Source: Caldisericia bacterium
GTDB taxonomy: Bacteria > Caldisericota > Caldisericia > UBA6126
Assembly (NCBI GenBank): GCA_035363255.1
Contig: DAOSES010000015.1
Location: 1-58,933, forward strand
Length of the DNA stretch: 58,933 nt
Reading direction: 5' to 3'
This document shows, in pieces, positions 3,773-58,933 of this stretch. The number at the start of each line of letters is the position of its first letter. Positions within the stretch are counted from its first letter, which is position 1. The position numbers were made by a program, and so were the translations under genes. The notes beneath the pieces are model-generated. The model was not told where the DNA came from. It did no database searches and was given only the letters and a program-made list of their open reading frames with translations.

Positions 3773-3862
3773 TGGCGGAGAAGGGGGGATTCGAACCCCC
3801 GAAACACGTACGTGTTTATCTGCTTTCGAGGCAGACGCTTTCAACCACTCAGCCACCTCTCC
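3773..3862 (-). tRNA. tRNA-Ser (anticodon CGA), type II with long variable arm, CCA encoded
   Basis: The reverse complement reads GGAGAGGTGGCTGAGTGGTTGAAAGCG-TCTGC-CTCGAAA-GCAGA-(long variable arm)-GGGGGTTCGAATCCCCC-CTTCTCC-G-CCA. The acceptor stem has 7 bp with one G-U pair, and the anticodon loop is CU-CGA-AA. Confidence 0.85.
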
Positions 3863-5970: not shown

Positions 5971-7785
5971 CTAAGATGGATAGTCTGGCAAAAAGGCAAT
6001 AGATATGGTGCCAGGTCCGGAATGAGAGCCAATTGTAGGGGAAATAGAGGTAACATAAATGCTTTTTACGGGATACATTTTTTCAATTTGTTCTTTATAC
6101 CAAAGAGCAGTAGATTCGTTATTACAATGACCTATTGCAAAATGTACTGATTTTAGCCCTGATATTCGCTTTGAGATCTCGTGAAGCATTTTTTTTCTGA
6201 GGCCATTGCTTCCAAAAGCTTTGGAAAAAGGTTTTAAAGCTCCTGTAGGATCGGTATGCATTAAGGGTTTTAGATTGAGCAAAGTAGCAATTTTACCTTT
6301 TGAAGCTTTGAGTCTTCCGCCACGAATAAGATACTTTAAATCTTCAACTGTAAACAATTGTTGGATGTGGTTGCATGACCACTCAACTCTATCGCAAACT
6401 TCTTTAAAACTAAGTTGTTCCTCGATGGCTTTACCTGCTTGGGCTACAATTAAACCAAGACCTACACATATACTTTTGCTATCATAAGCAAGAATGTTTT
6501 CAGAGATACTAGCTGCTATTTTTTTGGCACTGTCGATTGAAGCACTTAATGGCCTTGCTATATGGATAGCTAAAGTGTTTTTAAAATTACGATTAGTCCA
6601 TTCATAGGTCTGTTTTAAGTCCATGTTGCTGAGTTGGGAGGTTTTTGCAACATCAGTTGAGTTTTGCATTCGGGTATAAAACTCATGATCGTCAATGGTA
6701 ATGCGATCAATCAGATTTTCTTTTCCAAAAGTAATACGAAATGGAATACGATGTATGTTGTATTTTTCTATCAAGTCGAGGGGTATGTCACAGGAGGTAT
6801 CAGTCACTAGTGCAATATTATGATTTACTTCTCCGTAGATATCTTTTTCCTGCTGACGAATATCTTCAATCTTCTCCTGATCTGTTTGACCATACTTTTG
6901 CAGAATTTGAAAAATTTTACCGGGCTGGTCTGAATGAGCATGGATTTTCATTTTTGTTTTTGAACCAACCACTACAACTGAGTCTGCAAAGGGTTTAAGT
7001 TCATCTTGAATAGTTTTACTGGACAAATGGTCGCCAACTAAAATGCACTCGGTGCAATAGCGATAGATTGAATCGGATTCTGGTGTATTGTTCGGTAAGG
7101 TTTTTTTATTTTCATCGGATATCTTTTTCCATAATTCACGGCGCATACGGCCATGTTCCATGTAGTCAACAATACCCTCAATCATATACACAAATCCTTG
7201 TGCACCTGCGTCAACTACATTTGCTTTACGAAGCACTTCCATCTGTTGAGTTGTACGAGCTAGACTAGCCTTAGCGGTTTCGAGTGATTGATACATTAGC
7301 GATGAAAAATCAGCTTCATTTTTACATCGTTCTGAAAGATCCTGTGCCCATTCTCGAATAACAGTCAGTATAGTACCTTCTTTAGGATTTGAAACTGCTT
7401 CTACTGCTCTTTTAGAAGCCAAGCTTGACGCTTCAGCCAAGTCTTTAGTATTAATTTTTCTGAATTTTTCAAAGCCTTCAGCTAGACCTTGGAAAAATTG
7501 AGCTAATATGGCGCCTGAATTTCCTCTGGCATTCATAAGGATGCTGTCGGCTATTAATTTGCTGGATTCTGAAATTGAGGAAGAATTGACGCTTTCAGGA
7601 TCCAATGCAATCGAACGTAGGGTTCCGCCCATGTTAGTACCCGTATCACTATCAGGAACAGGAAAGACATTAATATCATCGAGTTGTTTTTCTCTTTCAA
7701 TCAGCCATTTACTCGCTGCAACAATAGCACGATTAAACCTATTGCCATCTAAAAACTGAATACGATAATCATTTTTTTCTACCAT
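5971..7785 (-). CDS. yloV: DAK2 domain fusion protein YloV (DAK2 + DegV-like domain)
   Basis: N-terminal DAK2-like sequence (PVPDSDTGTNMGGTL) and C-terminal DegV-like sequence (IALVTDTSCDIPLDLIEKYNI...). Confidence 0.85.
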   Translation of the reverse strand: MVEKNDYRIQFLDGNRFNRAIVAASKWLIEREKQLDDINVFPVPDSDTGTNMGGTLRSIALDPESVNSSSISESSKLIADSILMNARGNSGAILAQFFQGLAEGFEKFRKINTKDLAEASSLASKRAVEAVSNPKEGTILTVIREWAQDLSERCKNEADFSSLMYQSLETAKASLARTTQQMEVLRKANVVDAGAQGFVYMIEGIVDYMEHGRMRRELWKKISDENKKTLPNNTPESDSIYRYCTECILVGDHLSSKTIQDELKPFADSVVVVGSKTKMKIHAHSDQPGKIFQILQKYGQTDQEKIEDIRQQEKDIYGEVNHNIALVTDTSCDIPLDLIEKYNIHRIPFRITFGKENLIDRITIDDHEFYTRMQNSTDVAKTSQLSNMDLKQTYEWTNRNFKNTLAIHIARPLSASIDSAKKIAASISENILAYDSKSICVGLGLIVAQAGKAIEEQLSFKEVCDRVEWSCNHIQQLFTVEDLKYLIRGGRLKASKGKIATLLNLKPLMHTDPTGALKPFSKAFGSNGLRKKMLHEISKRISGLKSVHFAIGHCNNESTALWYKEQIEKMYPVKSIYVTSISPTIGSHSGPGTISIAFLPDYPS

Positions 7786-47845: not shown

Positions 47846-49516
47846 ATGAAGTTTTATAGAACACATGTATTGATTGCCAGTGATGCAAAAAGCCTGGTAC
47901 TTGGAGCAAAAAGCATTCAGGATTTGTTAATTTCTGCCTTAAAAAAATACAAACTGGAAGACGAAGTTAAGGTTATTCCAACGGGTAGCCTTGGTTTTGA
48001 AGAAACTGGTGTAGCCATCATGGTATATCCTGAAGGCATCATTTATGCACCTGTAAATCATCAAAATATTGAAGAAATTGTAGTCGAACACTTCCTCAAA
48101 GGCAGAGTTGTCAATAGTCTGAAAAAGCTACCAAAAATTTCCAACATCTCTGCTGGTTCCCTTGAAAATCAAGCAATTTTAGATGTGCAACAAAGAGTAG
48201 TCTTGGAAAATGTCGGTATTATCGATCCTGAAAACATCATGGAATACATAGCCAGAGAAGGCTATTCTGCAATTGAAAAAGCAATATTTAGCCTAAAACC
48301 AGAAAATGTGATTGAAGAACTTAAAATTTCTGAACTTCGTGGAAGAGGTGGTGCTGGCTTTCCCACAGGCTTAAAATGGGACTTTACGCGTAAAGCTATT
48401 GGAGACAAAAAATACGTTATTTGCAATGCAGATGAAGGCGAGCCTGGTACATTCAAAGATCGTGAAATCATGGAAGGAGACCCCCACAAACTCATTGAAG
48501 GGATGATGCTTGCTGGATACGCCACGGGAGCAGACTACGGATATATCTATATCCGCGGAGAGTATGCTTTATCCATAAAAAGACTTGAAAAAGCTATCGC
48601 AGATGCAAGAGAATACGGGCTTCTCGGTAAAAATATCTTAAATAGCCAGTTTAGCTTTGACTTGGAAGTTTATAAAGGCGCTGGAGCCTATGTTTGCGGG
48701 GAAGAAACCGCACTAATCGAATCAATTGAAGGCAAACGTGGCGAACCACGAAAAAAACCCCCTTACCCCCCTACCTCAGGTTTATGGGGAAAGCCTACAG
48801 TAGTCAACAACGTGGAAACTCTTGCAAATATCCCTTCCATCATAAGGAATGGTGGATTCTGGTACAAAGGGATTGGAGTTGAAGGTTCCCGCGGGACTAA
48901 GCTTTTCAGTCTAATGGGAGATTTAAAATGGAAAGGAGTGGTTGAAATTCCTTTTGGCACCCACCTTTCCAACATTATTAGCAATCTTGGCTTGGGAATA
49001 AGCAACGGCAAATCACTCAAAGGAGTCATCCTTGGAGGATCATCGGGCTTTTTAATCAAACCCGACGAGCTTGAAACTCCAGTAGATTTTCACTCCCTTG
49101 CTCAAATAGAAGCTGGTCCAGGCTCTGGATCTATTGTAGCAATGGATGAACATCGTTGTATCGTGGATATGATAAAAAATATTGCTCAATTTTTTGAGCA
49201 TGAAAGCTGTGGAAAATGCACACCATGTCGAAATGGCACGAATCAGATAGTAGCAATACTTGAACGTATCTCCTCAGGTGATGGCAAACTTGAAGACCTG
49301 CGTAATCTTGAAACACTTGGAAACACGATGGCTCAGGCTTCCTTCTGTCCTCTGGGGCAAACTGCTCCAAACATCATGATTCAAGCTATAAAAAAATACC
49401 GTAGTGAGTTTGAAGCTCATATCATCGATAAAAAATGTCCAGCTAATGTTTGCCGTTTCTATGAAGACACTTTAATAAAACAAAACAACAATCCAAGGGA
49501 GGTTGAAAATGAATGA
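47846..49516 (+). CDS. Second NuoF-like subunit, whose N-terminal thioredoxin-like domain lacks the Cys ligands
   Basis: ELRGRGGAGFPTGLKW and CGKCTPCRNG are conserved. The N-terminus reads LIASDAKSLVLGA / TGSLGFEETG where the paralog has CAGGQC / CMGAC. Confidence 0.8.
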   Translation: MKFYRTHVLIASDAKSLVLGAKSIQDLLISALKKYKLEDEVKVIPTGSLGFEETGVAIMVYPEGIIYAPVNHQNIEEIVVEHFLKGRVVNSLKKLPKISNISAGSLENQAILDVQQRVVLENVGIIDPENIMEYIAREGYSAIEKAIFSLKPENVIEELKISELRGRGGAGFPTGLKWDFTRKAIGDKKYVICNADEGEPGTFKDREIMEGDPHKLIEGMMLAGYATGADYGYIYIRGEYALSIKRLEKAIADAREYGLLGKNILNSQFSFDLEVYKGAGAYVCGEETALIESIEGKRGEPRKKPPYPPTSGLWGKPTVVNNVETLANIPSIIRNGGFWYKGIGVEGSRGTKLFSLMGDLKWKGVVEIPFGTHLSNIISNLGLGISNGKSLKGVILGGSSGFLIKPDELETPVDFHSLAQIEAGPGSGSIVAMDEHRCIVDMIKNIAQFFEHESCGKCTPCRNGTNQIVAILERISSGDGKLEDLRNLETLGNTMAQASFCPLGQTAPNIMIQAIKKYRSEFEAHIIDKKCPANVCRFYEDTLIKQNNNPREVENE

Positions 49517-51335
49517 TCAAACTGTCAATATAACCATTAATGGGAAACCATTTAGCGTAGCTGCTCATAGCACCATTCTTGAAGCTTGTGAAAAAGCTCA
49601 TATCCATGTGCCCACTTTGTGCTACCTTAAAGAGATTTGCGAAGAGGGCTCATGTGGAATCTGTGTAGTCGAAGTTGCAAAAGCAAGAACATTGCAAAGA
49701 GCTTGTATTACTGAAGTTTTTGAAGGTATGGAAATTAAAACACATACTCCCCGAGTGCTTGAAGCAAGAAAAACGGTAGCTGAACTTATTCTTGCAAATC
49801 ATCCTAAAGACTGTCTTTCCTGCGATGCAAATGAATCTTGTGATTTACGTCAACTCACTTACGATTTAGGTATTTCCGAAGTACATTTTGAAAAAACTCG
49901 TGAAAATGATTTTGAACTCGATCTCACATCTCCTTCGTTTAAACGTGACATGAATAAATGCATCCTTTGCAAACGTTGTGTTGAAGTTTGCGAAAAAGTT
50001 CAGTCGGTATCAGTTATTGACACTGCCGGACGAGGCATGAAAAATCGAATAGCAACTTTTATGGATCGTGGTATTGGTGAATCCTATTGTATTAATTGCG
50101 GTCAATGCGTTTTGGTTTGCCCCACTGGCGCTCTTATTGAACAAAGTGAAGTTGATCTCGTTTGGAAGGCTTTGGCAGATCCCAAAAAGATTATCCTGGT
50201 TGAAACAGCTCCAGCAGTGCGCGTTGCTATTGGTGAAGAATTTGGTCTTCCTGCTGGATCCCTGGTTACCAAACAAATGGTTGCTGGTCTTCGTCGATTA
50301 GGTTTCACGAAAGTATTTGATACCAATTTCTCTGCCGATTTAACCATTATGGAAGAAGGTTATGAGCTTATAGGTCGCATTAAAAAGGCACTAGGTCAAG
50401 ACAAAGGTGAATACCACGGTCCCACCAATCTTCCAATGATCACCTCTTGCTCTCCTGGTTGGATCAAATTTGCTGAACACTTTTTCCCTGGAGTTTTAGA
50501 TCATCTATCAACTTGCAAGTCACCTCAACAAATGTTTGGTGCTGTAGCAAAAACATACTACGCTGAAAAGTTAAAAGTTGATCCCAGAGATATTGTAGTC
50601 GTTTCTATCATGCCTTGTGTTGCAAAAAAATATGAAGCAAAACGCCCTGAAATGAATAGTGCTTTCCATTATTGGAAAAACAAACTTCATCTTACTGATG
50701 ATCAATCTTTCCAGGATGTTGACCATGTACTTACCACTCGTGAAGCTGCCCGTATGATGAAACAAGCAGGTATTTTCCTTCCAGATCTACCTAATGAAGA
50801 GTTTGATCAGCCTCTAGGTTCATCTACCGGTGCTGCTGTGATATTCGGTTCATCGGGCGGAGTTATGGAAGCTGCAATCCGTACTGCTTATGAAGTTATC
50901 ACAGAGTCTCCTCTGCCTAAGCTTGATTTCGAAGAAGTCCGTGGCTTGCAGGGCATTAAAAGCGCTACTATCGATATTCAAGGGCTGGGACTTAAGATTG
51001 CTGTTGCCAATGGCCTTGGAAATGCTCGAGTTCTTCTTGAACAAGTTGCCAAAGGCGAATCACCCTATCATTTCATCGAAGTAATGGCATGTCCAGGTGG
51101 TTGTATCGGTGGAGGTGGACAACCCTATCCCACTAATACCGAAGTAAGAGAAAAACGTATGAAAGCAATCTATTGTGAAGATTGTAATTTACCCATACGT
51201 AAATCCCACGAAAATCCATCTATTACTGACATTTACAAAGATTTTCTTGGACAGCCCAATGGTGAAAAATCCCACCATCTATTACATACCTCCTACACTC
51301 AACGCGACATCTACGAGCAAGAAAAAGAAAGATAA
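49509..51335 (+). CDS. hydA: [FeFe] hydrogenase catalytic subunit HydA (M3-type: 2Fe-2S + His-ligated 4Fe-4S + 2x4Fe-4S + H-domain + C-terminal SSU-like tail)
   Basis: L2 motif MPCVAKKYEA, L3 motif EVMACPGGCIGGGGQP, L1 reads TSCSPGW. N-terminal cluster motifs CYLKEICEEGSCGIC, HPKDCLSCDANESC, CILCKRCVEVC, CINCGQCVLVCP. RBS GGGAGG lies 8 nt before the ATG. Confidence 0.9.
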   Translation: MNDQTVNITINGKPFSVAAHSTILEACEKAHIHVPTLCYLKEICEEGSCGICVVEVAKARTLQRACITEVFEGMEIKTHTPRVLEARKTVAELILANHPKDCLSCDANESCDLRQLTYDLGISEVHFEKTRENDFELDLTSPSFKRDMNKCILCKRCVEVCEKVQSVSVIDTAGRGMKNRIATFMDRGIGESYCINCGQCVLVCPTGALIEQSEVDLVWKALADPKKIILVETAPAVRVAIGEEFGLPAGSLVTKQMVAGLRRLGFTKVFDTNFSADLTIMEEGYELIGRIKKALGQDKGEYHGPTNLPMITSCSPGWIKFAEHFFPGVLDHLSTCKSPQQMFGAVAKTYYAEKLKVDPRDIVVVSIMPCVAKKYEAKRPEMNSAFHYWKNKLHLTDDQSFQDVDHVLTTREAARMMKQAGIFLPDLPNEEFDQPLGSSTGAAVIFGSSGGVMEAAIRTAYEVITESPLPKLDFEEVRGLQGIKSATIDIQGLGLKIAVANGLGNARVLLEQVAKGESPYHFIEVMACPGGCIGGGGQPYPTNTEVREKRMKAIYCEDCNLPIRKSHENPSITDIYKDFLGQPNGEKSHHLLHTSYTQRDIYEQEKER

Positions 51336-51348
51336 CACTCTCAAAAAA

Positions 51349-51381
51349 GAGGCAAGGGCTTTTGCCCTTGCCTCTTTTTTT
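51349..51381 (+). terminator. Rho-independent terminator after hydA
   Basis: GAGGCAAGGGC-tttt-GCCCTTGCCTC followed by T7. An A-run upstream makes bidirectional function possible. Confidence 0.8.
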
Positions 51382-51460
51382 ATTGAATTATTCTAGGCTT
51401 GTGATACCTTATATGATATCCAGTAAGTGATGAATATATGAGAATAATTAAGGATTAGCA

Positions 51461-52300
51461 ATGGAAGACAACTTTTTAAACGCTCAAGGGATTACCAAGT
51501 TTTTATCTGAAGAATCGGGCGTACAAAAAGCAAGGCTTGATTTAAAATCGCTCCTCATTCTTGGTTTTATGGCCGGAGCATTTATTTCTTTCGGAGGCAT
51601 GATCTCGGTAGTAGTTCTTACTGATAGCTCTTTTTTTATTGGTAAAGCCTTGAGTAAAATTCTAGCAGGAATGTTTTTCAGTATGGGCTTGTTGCTCGTT
51701 TTATTAAGCAATGCAGAACTTTTTACTGGTAACAGTCTTATGCTTATATCTTTATTCAACAAAAAAATTACTTTTATCAGACTCTTAAGAAATTGGTTCT
51801 TTGTCTATTTGGCAAATTTTCTTGGTTCAATGTGCCTTGCTATTTTATTGTTTTACTCAGGTATTTGGAAAAACGATCAATACCTCTATGCACAAACCAT
51901 CCATTCTATCGCACTAAAAAAAGTCAGTTTGCCTATTATTGAAGCTTTTTTTCGAGGTGTTTTATGTAATTGGCTGGTTTGTCTCGCGATATGGATGAGT
52001 TTTTCTTCCAAAGCCATTGTCAATAAATTTTTTGCTATTCTTTTACCCATAACAAGCTTTATTGCATTGAGTTTTGAGCATAGTGTGGCAAATATGTTTA
52101 TATTACCTTTTGCTTATTTGACTCAAACATCTCTTTCAACTATCTCAATTCCAACAACAACTATTCCAAGCATGATTGAGCTCAATTGGACAACTATTCT
52201 CAGTAACAATTTACTACCAGTTTCATTGGGAAACATTGTTGGCGGAGTTTTCTTTGTATCATTCATTTTTTGGCTTGCTTATTGCCATCAAAAGCTGTAA
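51461..52300 (+). CDS. focA: Formate/nitrite transporter family channel (FocA-like)
   Basis: FNT hallmark FSMGLLLVLLSNAELFTGN and six TM segments. Confidence 0.8.
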   Translation: MEDNFLNAQGITKFLSEESGVQKARLDLKSLLILGFMAGAFISFGGMISVVVLTDSSFFIGKALSKILAGMFFSMGLLLVLLSNAELFTGNSLMLISLFNKKITFIRLLRNWFFVYLANFLGSMCLAILLFYSGIWKNDQYLYAQTIHSIALKKVSLPIIEAFFRGVLCNWLVCLAIWMSFSSKAIVNKFFAILLPITSFIALSFEHSVANMFILPFAYLTQTSLSTISIPTTTIPSMIELNWTTILSNNLLPVSLGNIVGGVFFVSFIFWLAYCHQKL

Positions 52301-56488: not shown

Positions 56489-56499
56489 AATAAAAAAAA

Positions 56500-56539
56500 G
56501 AGCATGAATTGAGCAAATCTCAATTCATGCTCTTTTTTT
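56500..56539. terminator. Bidirectional rho-independent terminator
   Basis: GAGCATGAATTGAG-caaat-CTCAATTCATGCTC flanked by an A8 run upstream and a T7 run downstream. It serves the convergent genes on both strands. Confidence 0.8.
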
Positions 56540-56544
56540 AACGA

Positions 56545-56793
56545 TTAAAGACTAATTAAAGCAGAGTGGAGACCTTGAATTGCGTTTAAGTCTGACTTAA
56601 GAAGATCAATTTCTGAGGGTTTGTCTAGTAGGGTGAGAATAATCACTCCACAATCAGAACATACATTTTCGTTGGCTTCATGAAAACCAATACGGTTTTG
56701 AATAATACAGCCATGCTTTGTCAGTACTTCTTGAACTTTAAGGGCATTATTGGTGCGTTTATCAAGTTTGATAGCCATTACATTACATTTCAT
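56545..56793 (-). CDS. Small ACT-like protein resembling the TM1266-type 'iron-only hydrogenase system regulator' family
   Basis: About 80 aa with the pattern AIKLDKR...KVQEVLTKHGCIIQNRIGFH...VIILTL...EIDLLKSDLNAIQGL. Assigned from recollection of the family pattern, not from a search. Confidence 0.45.
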   Translation of the reverse strand: MKCNVMAIKLDKRTNNALKVQEVLTKHGCIIQNRIGFHEANENVCSDCGVIILTLLDKPSEIDLLKSDLNAIQGLHSALISL

Positions 56794-56838: not shown

Positions 56839-58662
56839 TTACGTCATTTTTGAAGTACAAGACTGATTTATTTTATCATACATCTCCATGATGATGTTTG
56901 CGATATCTTCTTTACACTTTATTGTTGTGTTTAATAAATGAAAATCAGAACGTTGTCTCAACCAACTTAACTGACGCTTTGCATATCTACGTGTGTTTTG
57001 ATTCATCATCTCTATTGCTTCTTTTAATGGTACTTTTTCTTGCTTTGCATTAATCAACTCACGGTACCCATGAGCCTTAATTCTCTCGATAGAGGAAACA
57101 TAGTTGTGTTGAATCAACCAATCAATTTCGTTCAACAAACCTTTGCTTAGCATGCCTTCAGTGCGCAGATGTATGCGTTGATATAATTGTTCCAAGTTTT
57201 GTATCAAACCAATTTTGATGTAAAAATAGGGCAAAGCTGTGCTTTCTTTTTTTTGCAGGTCGCTCATTTTCTTTTTACTTAAAATAATTACCTCAAGAGC
57301 TCTTATGATCCTTTTTTCATCGTTTGGATGGATCTTCTGTGCGATTTCTGGATCCAAAAGAGCTAGCTCTTGATGGAGCTGCAGCAAACTTTCTTTTTTG
57401 ACTCTTTCTCTAAGTTGATTTCTTAGCAAAGGATCTGAAGTATTTTCTTGATCAAACAAACCATCAATGATTGAGCTTAAATATAGATTACTACCTCCAG
57501 CTAAAATGGGGAAACTACCACGATTCAAGATATCTTTTATGGCTTTTATTGCATCTTTACGAAATGACGCAACCGAGTACTCATCTTTTGGGTCAACGTA
57601 ATCCACAAGATGATACATGGGATAGCTTTTGCATTCAGGTTTAGCAGTACCTATGGTTAAATGCTGGTAGATTTGCATGGAATCAACATTGATAATCTCA
57701 GCATTTCTTGTTTGAGCAATTATCTCGGCTATGGAAGATTTACCAATCGAAGTAGGTCCATATATAACTAGCAATGGAAAAGAATCTGGAGTAGTTTTAT
57801 CTCTAACTTTCACTATTCTTCGTACCGTCTCATCGATTATATAGGTGGGTGATGAAGTTCCAGAAAGAATAGCGATGCTTTTCGCTTTTTCGAGTGCGCT
57901 TGATAATGCTTCACTAAAAGGATGCTTTTCGTCGCTTTGAATAAGGAAAGTATTGGAGTTACATGGTTTAGCAAGTTCAAACAAACTATAGGTGTTTGAG
58001 CTTTTTGCGTCACCAACCACAAAAACACAATCACTTATTTTTGCAAACTCAAGAGCATCATTCTGGCGTTTAATGACTGTGGGGCAAATAGTTTCATATA
58101 TGTTTAGTTGATCAAGATTTAGCGATTGAAGATAGTTTTTGATTTGATGGAACACTATACTGCTTGCGGTAGTCTGGGAAAGAAAGGCAATATTCCCCTT
58201 TGGAAGTTCGAAATGGTGAACTTGCTCTAAGTTTTCAACAATAGTCACTTTGGAAGAATCAATATAGCTTACTGCGCCAACGATTTCTGGATGGTTTTTT
58301 TTTCCCAGGAGCAGTATGCATTGGTGGTTTTTAGCAACATTCATAAGGAGTTTTCTAAGTTTTATGACTACAGGACAAGTACGATCAATAATATCAGAGG
58401 TTATTTTCTTCAGTTGTTCTTCTGATTCTTTTGTGATCCCGTGAGCAGGAATAATGACTCTTGTATCGCAAGAAATTTCTTCAAGTGAATACACTGTTCT
58501 GACGCCATTTAGTGCCAATTCGTTTTGAACACGTTCGTTGTGAATCAGTTTTCCAAAAATTACTACTTCTTTGCCTGGTTCGATGCTTGATACGGTAGAC
58601 CAAATTGCATTTCTAACCCCTTCGCACAAACCAATATGCTCATAACAAGTTATTTTATCCAT
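56839..58662 (-). CDS. ispH-miaA: Bifunctional fusion: 4-hydroxy-3-methylbut-2-enyl diphosphate reductase (IspH/LytB) N-terminal half + tRNA dimethylallyltransferase (MiaA) C-terminal half
   Basis: The IspH half carries the three cluster Cys (GLCEGV, TCPVV, ICPTV) plus HN, SQTT and GTSSP motifs over about residues 1-285. The MiaA half has the P-loop GPTSIGKSS and VDSMQIYQHLTIGTAKP over about residues 295-607. Confidence 0.85.
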   Translation of the reverse strand: MDKITCYEHIGLCEGVRNAIWSTVSSIEPGKEVVIFGKLIHNERVQNELALNGVRTVYSLEEISCDTRVIIPAHGITKESEEQLKKITSDIIDRTCPVVIKLRKLLMNVAKNHQCILLLGKKNHPEIVGAVSYIDSSKVTIVENLEQVHHFELPKGNIAFLSQTTASSIVFHQIKNYLQSLNLDQLNIYETICPTVIKRQNDALEFAKISDCVFVVGDAKSSNTYSLFELAKPCNSNTFLIQSDEKHPFSEALSSALEKAKSIAILSGTSSPTYIIDETVRRIVKVRDKTTPDSFPLLVIYGPTSIGKSSIAEIIAQTRNAEIINVDSMQIYQHLTIGTAKPECKSYPMYHLVDYVDPKDEYSVASFRKDAIKAIKDILNRGSFPILAGGSNLYLSSIIDGLFDQENTSDPLLRNQLRERVKKESLLQLHQELALLDPEIAQKIHPNDEKRIIRALEVIILSKKKMSDLQKKESTALPYFYIKIGLIQNLEQLYQRIHLRTEGMLSKGLLNEIDWLIQHNYVSSIERIKAHGYRELINAKQEKVPLKEAIEMMNQNTRRYAKRQLSWLRQRSDFHLLNTTIKCKEDIANIIMEMYDKINQSCTSKMT

Positions 58663-58933
58663 GCCTCCTCTTTCATCCTATAATTATAGCGATTCATTCA
58701 GATTTAAACATGTAGAGTCACTGTTTAAAAAAAAGTTTAAAGGTGAGTTATCAATACCGCTGATCTGGAGTAATCAGCGGCCTATTCTTTGGAGGTTCGT
58801 TTGAACCTTGATAATTTATAAATTCAAATGTTAAAAAAGCAAGTATAGAAATTTAACAAAAAAACAAGCTTAAAATTGCGTGTTGCTTCATTTAAAAACC
58901 TATTCGAACGGTCTTCGATGATTCAGCTAAAAC

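Follow-up and report, generated by a model that had tools for sequence, protein, structure and literature searches.

Does a single protein really unite the last enzyme of isoprenoid precursor synthesis with an enzyme that consumes its product, and what would such a union bring to the cell? The question is raised by a 58,933-nucleotide stretch of DNA from a Caldisericia bacterium (contig DAOSES010000015.1 of GenBank assembly GCA_035363255.1; here called the window), in which the original prediction, made from the sequence alone, placed one 607-residue open reading frame (ORF) at positions 56839 to 58662, encoding a complete IspH followed by a complete MiaA. In such a protein, the N-terminal IspH domain, with its [4Fe-4S] cluster, would reduce 4-hydroxy-3-methylbut-2-enyl diphosphate (HMBPP), the last intermediate of the methylerythritol phosphate (MEP) pathway, to isopentenyl diphosphate (IPP) and dimethylallyl diphosphate (DMAPP). 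The C-terminal MiaA domain would then dimethylallylate N6 of A37 in UNN-reading tRNAs, with DMAPP as the donor, yielding N6-isopentenyladenosine (i6A37). Our analysis indicates that the protein is likely a genuinely bifunctional IspH/MiaA enzyme, which would go back to a single, ancient in-frame joining of ispH with miaA within this anaerobic, uncultured Caldisericia lineage.

One reading frame through both domains

The coordinates and content of the predicted ORF proved exact, and we add the strand (minus), which the prediction had left unstated. The frame begins with ATG and runs for 607 codons with zero in-frame stops (Table 1). Where the two domains meet, no in-frame stop is present, and the two other frames are rich in stops. 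Both halves are recognized nearly at full length and above the respective cutoffs by Pfam and NCBIfam models and retain their catalytic residues, in agreement with the two complete enzymes that had been proposed.

The first concern with a gene of this kind is that two adjacent genes may look like one because a stop codon was lost, the frame was shifted, or the contig is chimeric. The complete ORF is nucleotide identical in three other independent assemblies (ENA ERZ27257396, ENA ERZ27257444, and JGI 3300025408), and exactly the same protein is found on nine contigs. Base composition is uniform along the gene, with GC contents of 0.373 and 0.359 and third-position GC contents (GC3) of 0.305 and 0.324 in the IspH and MiaA halves, respectively. 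Among 5.8 billion proteins searched, 30 clusters have a LYTB domain ahead of an IPPT domain; these are the two-domain proteins whose spread the prediction had left to be mapped. Twenty-nine fusion clusters have lengths of 600 to 620 amino acids (aa) and identities of 44 to 80% to the window protein; beyond those 29 clusters, there are P0001, which is 100% identical, and one partial protein of 511 aa. The junction is read through in every one of these 29 diverged clusters of orthologues, which stem from NCBI, JGI, ENA, and Logan assemblies, and because they are continuous across the same point, the fusion is not a product of chance or sequencing error. A few short cluster members would fit an artefact (P0067 with 260 aa and P0062 with 324 aa, both on one 2.9-kb contig, as well as P0071 and P0073), but they lack essential segments, either residues 261 to 284 or half of the P-loop. 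We considered whether they could be natural split genes and rejected this, as the missing segments identify them as broken (frameshifted or truncated) gene calls. The chance that the fusion is an assembly or sequencing artefact is practically negligible.

Table 1. Features of the fusion gene and its surroundings. Positions are those of the window unless a locus (L) number is given; L numbers denote loci on other contigs.
Feature	Position	Strand	Residues	Remarks
ispH-miaA fusion gene	56839..58662	minus	1-607	607 codons plus stop; ORF listing, Pfam, NCBIfam, identical gene in other assemblies
IspH/LytB domain	57808..58662	minus	1-285	Pfam, NCBIfam, alignment, AlphaFold2 (AF2) model
Interdomain linker	57775..57807	minus	286-296	V286, then RDKTTPDSFP
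MiaA (tRNA A37 dimethylallyltransferase) domain	56923..57774	minus	297-580	TIGR00174, alignment, AF2 model
Motifs of the MiaA half			301-308; 327-330; 338-342	P-loop GPTSIGKS; catalytic DSMQ; GTAKP; C-terminal KRQLSWLRQRSDFHLLN
Helical insertion domain of the MiaA half			~405-475	AF2 helices 411-472
Variable C-terminal helix and tail	56839..56922	minus	581-607	Includes stop codon; mean pairwise identity 0.23
Probable expression signals of the fusion gene	58664..58688	minus		Shine-Dalgarno GAGGAGG 58664-58670; TATAAT -10 box 58683-58688; read from sequence
Small downstream gene, CPF_0552 family	56545..56793	minus	82 aa	45 nt past the fusion stop
Intrinsic-terminator-like hairpin, strong	56493..56539	minus		20-bp stem plus T run; terminator scan
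GC-rich hairpin	58757-58780			Between rve and fusion genes
rve-family transposase gene	58757-58933; L084 8452-9771			Ends ~230 nt upstream of the fusion
uppS-cdsA-dxr-rseP	L084 2755-5407			Within 8 kb of the fusion
Flavin_Reduct genes	L088 9496-10008; L090 3496-4008; L091 3469-3948		159-170 aa	PF01613
rsmE, methylthiotransferase, rpsU	L089 11831-14020; L092 3184-5372			Follow the fusion on the same strand
Transporter/hydrogenase-type cluster	47846-52300; L082 12458-19732; L087 15927-21815	plus (window)		Convergent to the fusion
FakA-DegV/FakB fusion	5971-7785; L081 1-480; L087 5556-7340	minus (window)	604 aa	Dak2 plus FakA-like_M, joined to DegV/FakB
tRNA-Ser(CGA)	3773-3862	minus		Anticodon loop C32 U33 C34 G35 A36 A37 A38

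The IspH half

Residue conservation was read from an alignment of 29 sequences, made up of the window protein and 28 of the 29 clusters, in which the members are 37 to 56% identical in pairwise comparisons within the domains and the catalytic and ligand residues of both halves are invariant. The Pfam LYTB model matches residues 5 to 283 (profile positions 2 to 266 of 267; E = 3e-62; 210.7 bits versus a cutoff of 24.5), and the ispH equivalog model TIGR00216 scores 201.2 bits versus a cutoff of 187.85 over positions 1 to 279 of 282. The invariant positions include the three iron-sulfur (Fe-S) cluster ligands C13, C96, and C193 and the residues of the substrate and proton relay (H41, H74, H124, E126, T164/T165, S221/S222/N223, and S270), whose counterparts in the Escherichia coli enzyme are H41, H74, H124, E126, T167, S225, S226, N227, and S269. 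These ligand and catalytic residues align motif by motif with those of the Aquifex aeolicus IspH (3dnf) and of E. coli IspH. The AF2 model of this half shows the trefoil of three alpha/beta domains and, in a Foldseek search of the PDB, superimposes on E. coli IspH in complex with HMBPP (3ke8, 3szu, and also 9ql0) with TM scores of 0.77 to 0.79 and a root mean square deviation (rmsd) of ~2.5 A; it also matches 3dnf.

At the sequence level, the nearest standalone IspH proteins among the 5.8 billion are of the Clostridia type and at most 33% identical; this search with the IspH half gave hits of about the same length as the query and none of the fusions, so that it is informative only on close standalone IspH. 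Several residues are invariant in the fusion IspH and rare elsewhere (R17, W21, P72, C193-P-T-V, D218, and T269), as judged against a comparison set of 262 standalone MiaA and 21 other IspH sequences (15 standalone and 6 from IspH-RPS1 fusions) that was used for both halves. Two of them alter familiar motifs, with C-P-T-V at the third cysteine in place of the canonical C-x-A-T, and G-T-S-S-P, where T269 is canonically an alanine, in place of G-A-S-x-P.

The MiaA half

The MiaA half has a Pfam IPPT match to residues 330 to 570 (profile positions 1 to 242 of 243; E = 2e-73; 247.5 bits versus a cutoff of 23.6) and 271 bits for the miaA equivalog TIGR00174 versus a cutoff of 148.65 (positions 2 to 285 of 288). 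Across the 29-sequence alignment, P-loop residues G302, T304, G307, and K308, the DSMQxY motif at 327 to 332 (D327-S328-M329-Q330-x-Y332), GTAKP, and the basic C-terminal KRQLSW are all invariant. In MiaA enzymes, the P-loop (GxTxxGK[ST]) holds the diphosphate of DMAPP, the DSxQxY motif supplies the catalytic Asp, and the helical insertion domain clamps the anticodon stem-loop of the tRNA. The half has sequence matches to the solved chains 3d3q, 2qgn/3exa, 3crm, and 2zm5, and its AF2 model agrees best with tRNA-bound E. coli MiaA (3foz/2zm5; TM score of 0.87 and rmsd of 2.5 A; Foldseek against the PDB). Beyond the domain, AF2 predicts a helix at residues 584 to 603 of the C-terminal tail.

The nearest full-length standalone MiaA proteins, mostly from Bacillota, are ~40 to 44% identical (5.8-billion-protein search), and an entry of 278 aa with 46% identity, from a contig of 1.5 kb, is possibly a fusion fragment. 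Residues invariant in the fusion and rare in standalone MiaA are E313, F480, H531 (canonically L, I, or V), and the segment 568-LRQRSDFHLLN-578, whose canonical counterpart is F-R-x-D-x-x-I-x-W-x-D. Together with those of the IspH half, they may either form an evolved interface or alter catalysis. The window also codes for a tRNA-Ser(CGA) whose A36-A37-A38 loop is typical of MiaA substrates, which makes it a candidate substrate.

The linker and the model of the whole protein

The two domains are joined by a linker of nearly constant length (9 to 11 residues) and variable sequence. The average identity between pairs of sequences is 0.50 for the IspH half, 0.56 for the MiaA half, and 0.19 for the linker. 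When the whole fusion was modeled by AF2 with the family alignment, the mean predicted local distance difference test (pLDDT) score was 88.9 and the predicted TM score (pTM) was 0.87, and the 10-residue blocks that span the linker (residues 281 to 300) averaged pLDDT values of 82 to 84. For two domains of ~300 residues each, such a pTM suggests a predicted arrangement with a defined mutual orientation. In a Foldseek search of the PDB, no solved chain spans both the IspH and MiaA halves.

Distribution and descent of the fusion

A profile of the family, run against 1.84 billion representatives (about 15 billion proteins clustered at 50%), gave 45,811 homologues. Among the best 150 of these, there was one full-length fusion (P0007, 940 bits), and from rank 2 onward the matches were to MiaA only, with at most 320 bits and nearly all from standalone proteins of ~310 aa. 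Therefore, all IspH-MiaA fusions visible at such a score form a single 50%-identity cluster. Other long MiaA proteins do occur (P0110, P0209, P0242, and P0051), with the unrelated partners SLH, Ala_racemase_N, TPR plus SLT, and ABC_tran. The first three are lone representatives of their 50% clusters and P0051 is a single-member 90% cluster; unlike the conserved IspH-MiaA family, they look sporadic or artefactual.

The members whose source is named all come from metagenome-assembled genomes (MAGs) labeled "Caldisericia bacterium," with one labeled merely "bacterium"; NCBI places Caldisericia in the phylum Caldisericota. All fusion clusters lie on contigs of at most 260 kb. The prediction had also held that the two genes are normally separate in most bacteria, and this is borne out both by the single fusion among the best 150 representatives and by the 80 standalone miaA loci that we inspected in many phyla, 0 of which have ispH within 10 kb. 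From the latter, it follows that the fusion was not derived from a widespread operon adjacency. A profile search of genome contigs with the family alignment gave, among the matches listed, ordinary standalone miaA and no fusion locus, and the 5.8-billion-protein search gave no unfused close relatives, that is, no standalone IspH above 33% and no clearly full-length standalone MiaA above 44% identity.

Substitution patterns were compared between the window gene and its 79%-identical homologue at L081. The proportion of nonsynonymous differences (pN) is 0.11 in the IspH half, 0.15 in the MiaA half, and 0.36 in the linker, and that of synonymous differences (pS) is ~0.76 to 0.78, i.e., synonymous sites are saturated; for this reason, we give pN/pS rather than dN/dS. 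The ratios (~0.15 for the IspH half, 0.19 for the MiaA half, and 0.57 for the linker) indicate strong purifying selection on both halves. Distances computed for each half separately are correlated between the halves (r = 0.84; Mantel test, 0 of 2000), and the subclades, five or six in number, are almost the same in both. This agreement points to a single fusion that was then inherited vertically.

What the fusion may do

If the two halves work as their conservation suggests, both activities would be exercised by the fusion polypeptide, which would be the working IspH and the working MiaA of the organism. The benefit would lie in an obligatory 1:1 coexpression and in the placement of MiaA where DMAPP is made. 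Of the two IspH products, DMAPP is the minor one, and MiaA would otherwise compete for it with chain-elongating prenyltransferases. Coexpression together with local supply would be the most economical benefit to propose. A dependence of this kind has a parallel in the Plasmodium apicoplast, in which IspH-derived DMAPP is treated as the supply for MiaA (PMC8844926, PMC10602226).

A metabolic setting for such an enzyme is visible on an 85-kb contig (L084), which carries the identical fusion gene and extends past the window end. There, an rve transposase gene lies 230 nt upstream of the fusion, and beyond it follow rpsB-tsf-pyrH-frr-uppS-cdsA-dxr-rseP. UppS exceeds its equivalog cutoff, and the Dxr homologue is full length and sits in its canonical gene cluster. 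The presence of dxr and uppS means that the organism possesses some, if not all, of the MEP pathway, along with a major consumer of isoprenoids.

Several points weigh against a bifunctional enzyme of this kind. The IspH half is unusually diverged, at no more than 33% identity to any standalone IspH, and it passes the TIGR00216 cutoff by just 13 bits. The substitutions beside its active-site motifs may give it an activity or a product ratio that differs from those of canonical IspH. The dxr homologue also falls below its NCBIfam equivalog cutoff (229 bits versus 315.7 for TIGR00243). In addition, another copy of ispH or miaA, or an idi gene that would relax the limitation of DMAPP, could possibly lie elsewhere in the genome, the loci read being the 59-kb window and 10-kb flanks; no second copy of ispH occurs in the window or in the 10-kb flanks of the Caldisericia loci that were examined. 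Last, the turnover of IspH is far above the needs of tRNA modification, and because of this excess, strict channeling is unnecessary to explain the fusion. As a separate observation, the Dxr of the fusion-bearing lineage is, like its IspH half, unusually diverged.

The alternative that survives best grants that both domains are active and takes the fusion itself to be kinetically neutral, a fixed accident that ensures coexpression and in which DMAPP would equilibrate with the bulk without any functional interface. We find this plausible, although we lean against it. A linker that is short and variable is what it would predict, gene context changes between subclades with no wider functional module kept, MiaA has been fused sporadically to unrelated partners elsewhere, and established enzymology puts the flux through IspH far above what MiaA needs. 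On the other hand, the fusion persists at ~45% identity with no unfused descendant visible, a pTM of 0.87 is unexpected for two independently tumbling domains of 300 aa, and the residues invariant only in the fusion (568-578, H531, E313, and F480 in MiaA; W21, R17, and P72 in IspH) fit an evolved interface. With these residues and the predicted orientation in mind, true channeling of DMAPP through a fixed domain interface is possible, and the suggestion of the original prediction that the fusion may channel DMAPP or couple tRNA modification to isoprenoid flux is a reasonable hypothesis. A stronger version of this idea, which we consider rather unlikely, is a fixed assembly in which DMAPP would pass from the Fe-S site of IspH straight into the MiaA channel, so that i6A37 and the decoding of UNN codons would be hard-wired to MEP flux, iron, and redox state, with an IspH half that is perhaps retuned toward DMAPP. 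If true, this would be the first case in nature of a metabolite being channeled from central isoprenoid synthesis to an enzyme that modifies RNA.

A less probable explanation is that one half has been repurposed, for example, with the IspH half as a regulatory or dedicated paralogue (a sensor of Fe-S status, redox state, or HMBPP, or a DMAPP-biased enzyme) and a housekeeping ispH elsewhere. The same divergence of the IspH half, its marginal TIGR00216 score, and the lineage-specific substitutions beside its active-site motifs would suit this explanation. However, the three cysteine ligands are invariant, as is every residue of the substrate and proton relay, the predicted fold matches substrate-bound E. 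coli IspH, and a second Caldisericia IspH did not surface in the protein searches. The precedent of IspH-RPS1 also argues against it, as Rao et al. found no other ispH or rps1 in the organisms with that fusion and measured catalytic activity of the fusion protein (PMC4746011). We therefore regard repurposing as improbable.

It is very improbable that the MiaA half uses HMBPP directly, with the IspH half as a binding and delivery module, to make hydroxy-isopentenyl-A37 without O2: the Agrobacterium isopentenyltransferases Tzs and Tmr do use HMBPP, MiaE depends on O2 and would be unusable by a strict anaerobe, and an HMBPP-binding domain here adjoins a prenyltransferase in such an organism. However, the MiaA half scores as a normal TIGR00174 equivalog, and its motifs are canonical; an IspH site that is intact would destroy HMBPP instead of passing it on; and the alignment has no sign of a hydroxyl-recognizing pocket.

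A bifunctional IspH/MiaA thus remains our preferred reading of the protein.

Comparison with other IspH fusions

IspH has been found joined to other domains before. All IspH fusions then present in InterPro were surveyed by Rao et al. in 2015 (Chem Sci; PMC4746011), with ribosomal protein S1 (RPS1), UbiA, CMP kinase, a helicase, FBPase, and UDP/PNP phosphorylase as partners; MiaA is not among them. Our full-text literature searches found no description of an IspH-MiaA fusion, NCBIfam has no model for this architecture, and in the databases (PGAP and JGI), the named members carry the product name "tRNA dimethylallyltransferase MiaA" only. The possibility that this was a common and already named bifunctional enzyme, which the original prediction had left open, can thus be set aside.

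A similar system is IspH-RPS1 (NF000907, "bifunctional HMBPP reductase/30S ribosomal protein S1"), which also has an N-terminal IspH joined in frame to a partner linked to translation or RNA binding and is also found in anaerobes. Its IspH is of the short (~280 aa) Clostridia/Aquifex type, the closest relative of the IspH half described here; NF000907 gives the best IspH-type score (207.7 bits, through the IspH part only; cutoff of 624), and IspH-S1 proteins are 27 to 31% identical. The differences lie in the partner, which here is MiaA, a consumer of the IspH product, in place of S1 repeats, and Pfam finds no S1 or UbiA domain in the fusion protein. The functional link is obvious for IspH-MiaA and still unknown for IspH-RPS1. 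The two also differ in abundance, as IspH-RPS1 is widespread (>400 sequences in 2015) and IspH-MiaA is a single 50%-identity cluster.

In its logic, the fusion resembles the IspH-UbiA of Desulfobacterales (PMC4746011), where IspH is also joined to a prenyltransferase that would use IspH-derived isoprenoid diphosphates, in the producer-consumer manner of a "Rosetta stone" protein. UbiA, however, is an integral-membrane aromatic prenyltransferase with a small-molecule acceptor, and MiaA has a soluble P-loop fold with tRNA as the acceptor. With the "Rosetta stone" IspH fusions in general, the family shares an N-terminal IspH in frame with a second domain and the conservation of this arrangement, which is common to the thirty clusters; in IspH-MiaA, the two halves co-diverge.

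Compared with the separate enzymes, the fold, cofactor ligands, and catalytic residues are those of standalone IspH (A. aeolicus 3dnf and E. coli 3ke8; TM scores of 0.67 to 0.79), and the fold, P-loop, and catalytic residues are those of standalone MiaA (Staphylococcus epidermidis 3d3q, Bacillus halodurans 3exa, and E. coli 2zm5/3foz; TM scores of 0.70 to 0.87). What sets the fusion apart is the covalent linker of ~10 residues and the fusion-specific invariant substitutions in both halves. IspDF is another lineage-restricted bifunctional fusion, of two MEP enzymes, for which channeling has long been debated. It joins two nonconsecutive steps within the pathway, whereas here the last MEP enzyme is joined to an RNA-modifying consumer outside it. 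We conclude that IspH-MiaA is an undescribed architecture within the known producer-consumer IspH fusions and brings no new mechanism, enzyme chemistry, or pathway.

Expression signals and genomic context

(i) Transcription unit. The Shine-Dalgarno sequence and TATAAT box upstream of the gene are kept at L081, though the rest of the upstream region has diverged, and the fusion probably has its own expression signals. A consensus promoter scan of this upstream region found no full promoter, with no match for the -35 element, and an Rfam search of the 5' region matched no family, riboswitch, or leader. An internal start that would yield a separate MiaA product was considered and rejected, as the junction has neither a conserved Met nor a strong Shine-Dalgarno sequence. 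The small gene downstream matches NF052672 (95.4 bits; cutoff of 85) and, weakly, the Pfam TM1266-like family, which is annotated as a putative iron-only hydrogenase system regulator. This gene is probably cotranscribed with the fusion, and the terminator-like hairpin closes the unit that both form. It is present in L081 and L084 to L086 and absent from L082, L087, L088, and L089, i.e., it is restricted to close relatives.

(ii) Upstream region. Several assemblies break at the rve gene, with L086 beginning there and the window ending there, and the edge of the window is probably an insertion sequence copy. At L081, a DUF4389 gene occupies the rve position. In the subclade of L088, L090, and L091, a Flavin_Reduct gene overlaps the start of the fusion by 8 nt, which suggests translational coupling. 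The encoded protein, for which there is no NCBIfam match, could be a dedicated electron donor to the Fe-S cluster of IspH.

(iii) Downstream region. In the subclade of L089 and L092, the fusion stands in a neighborhood of translation and tRNA-A37 modification. Gene order and Pfam domains are the same at both loci, and the methylthiotransferase was scored in L089 (357.9 versus 357.05 bits for MtaB TIGR01579 and 262 versus 355 bits for MiaB). We dropped the idea of an operon leading from i6A to its 2-methylthio derivative (ms2i6A), since this enzyme scores as MtaB and not as MiaB. Convergent to the fusion is a recurrent cluster with a formate/nitrite transporter and an NADH-linked FeFe hydrogenase or formate dehydrogenase, with NuoF-like and 2Fe-2S thioredoxin-like subunits, which is present even in 45%-identical relatives. 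This proximity probably reflects conserved gene order and not a functional relation. Between this cluster and the fusion, the window contains moaC, moeA, a gene with a MoCF_biosynth domain, and a ThiF/MoeB-family gene; moaE and ThiS/MoaD appear only in the gene tables of L081 and L084 to L086. A shared operon neighborhood as the cause of the fusion was rejected, as the context varies among subclades.

(iv) A second fusion. The window also codes for a FakA joined to a DegV/FakB fatty-acid-binding domain, thus uniting both components of fatty acid kinase. Remote members of the lineage have kept this fusion as well.

Implications

The fusion sequences are already in the databases and are under-annotated there. 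Pathway reconstruction from the PGAP or JGI names would miss ispH, and the MEP pathway of Caldisericia could look incomplete as a result, which is simple to fix. The family is a functionally transparent addition to the small set of IspH fusions, with a partner that consumes the minor product DMAPP, and a compact natural scaffold on which to test whether enzyme fusion gives substrate channeling; modules leading from HMBPP to prenylated nucleosides are a possible use. For the biology of these anaerobes, it supports the view that selection acts on the way in which tRNA modification and chain elongation compete for DMAPP.

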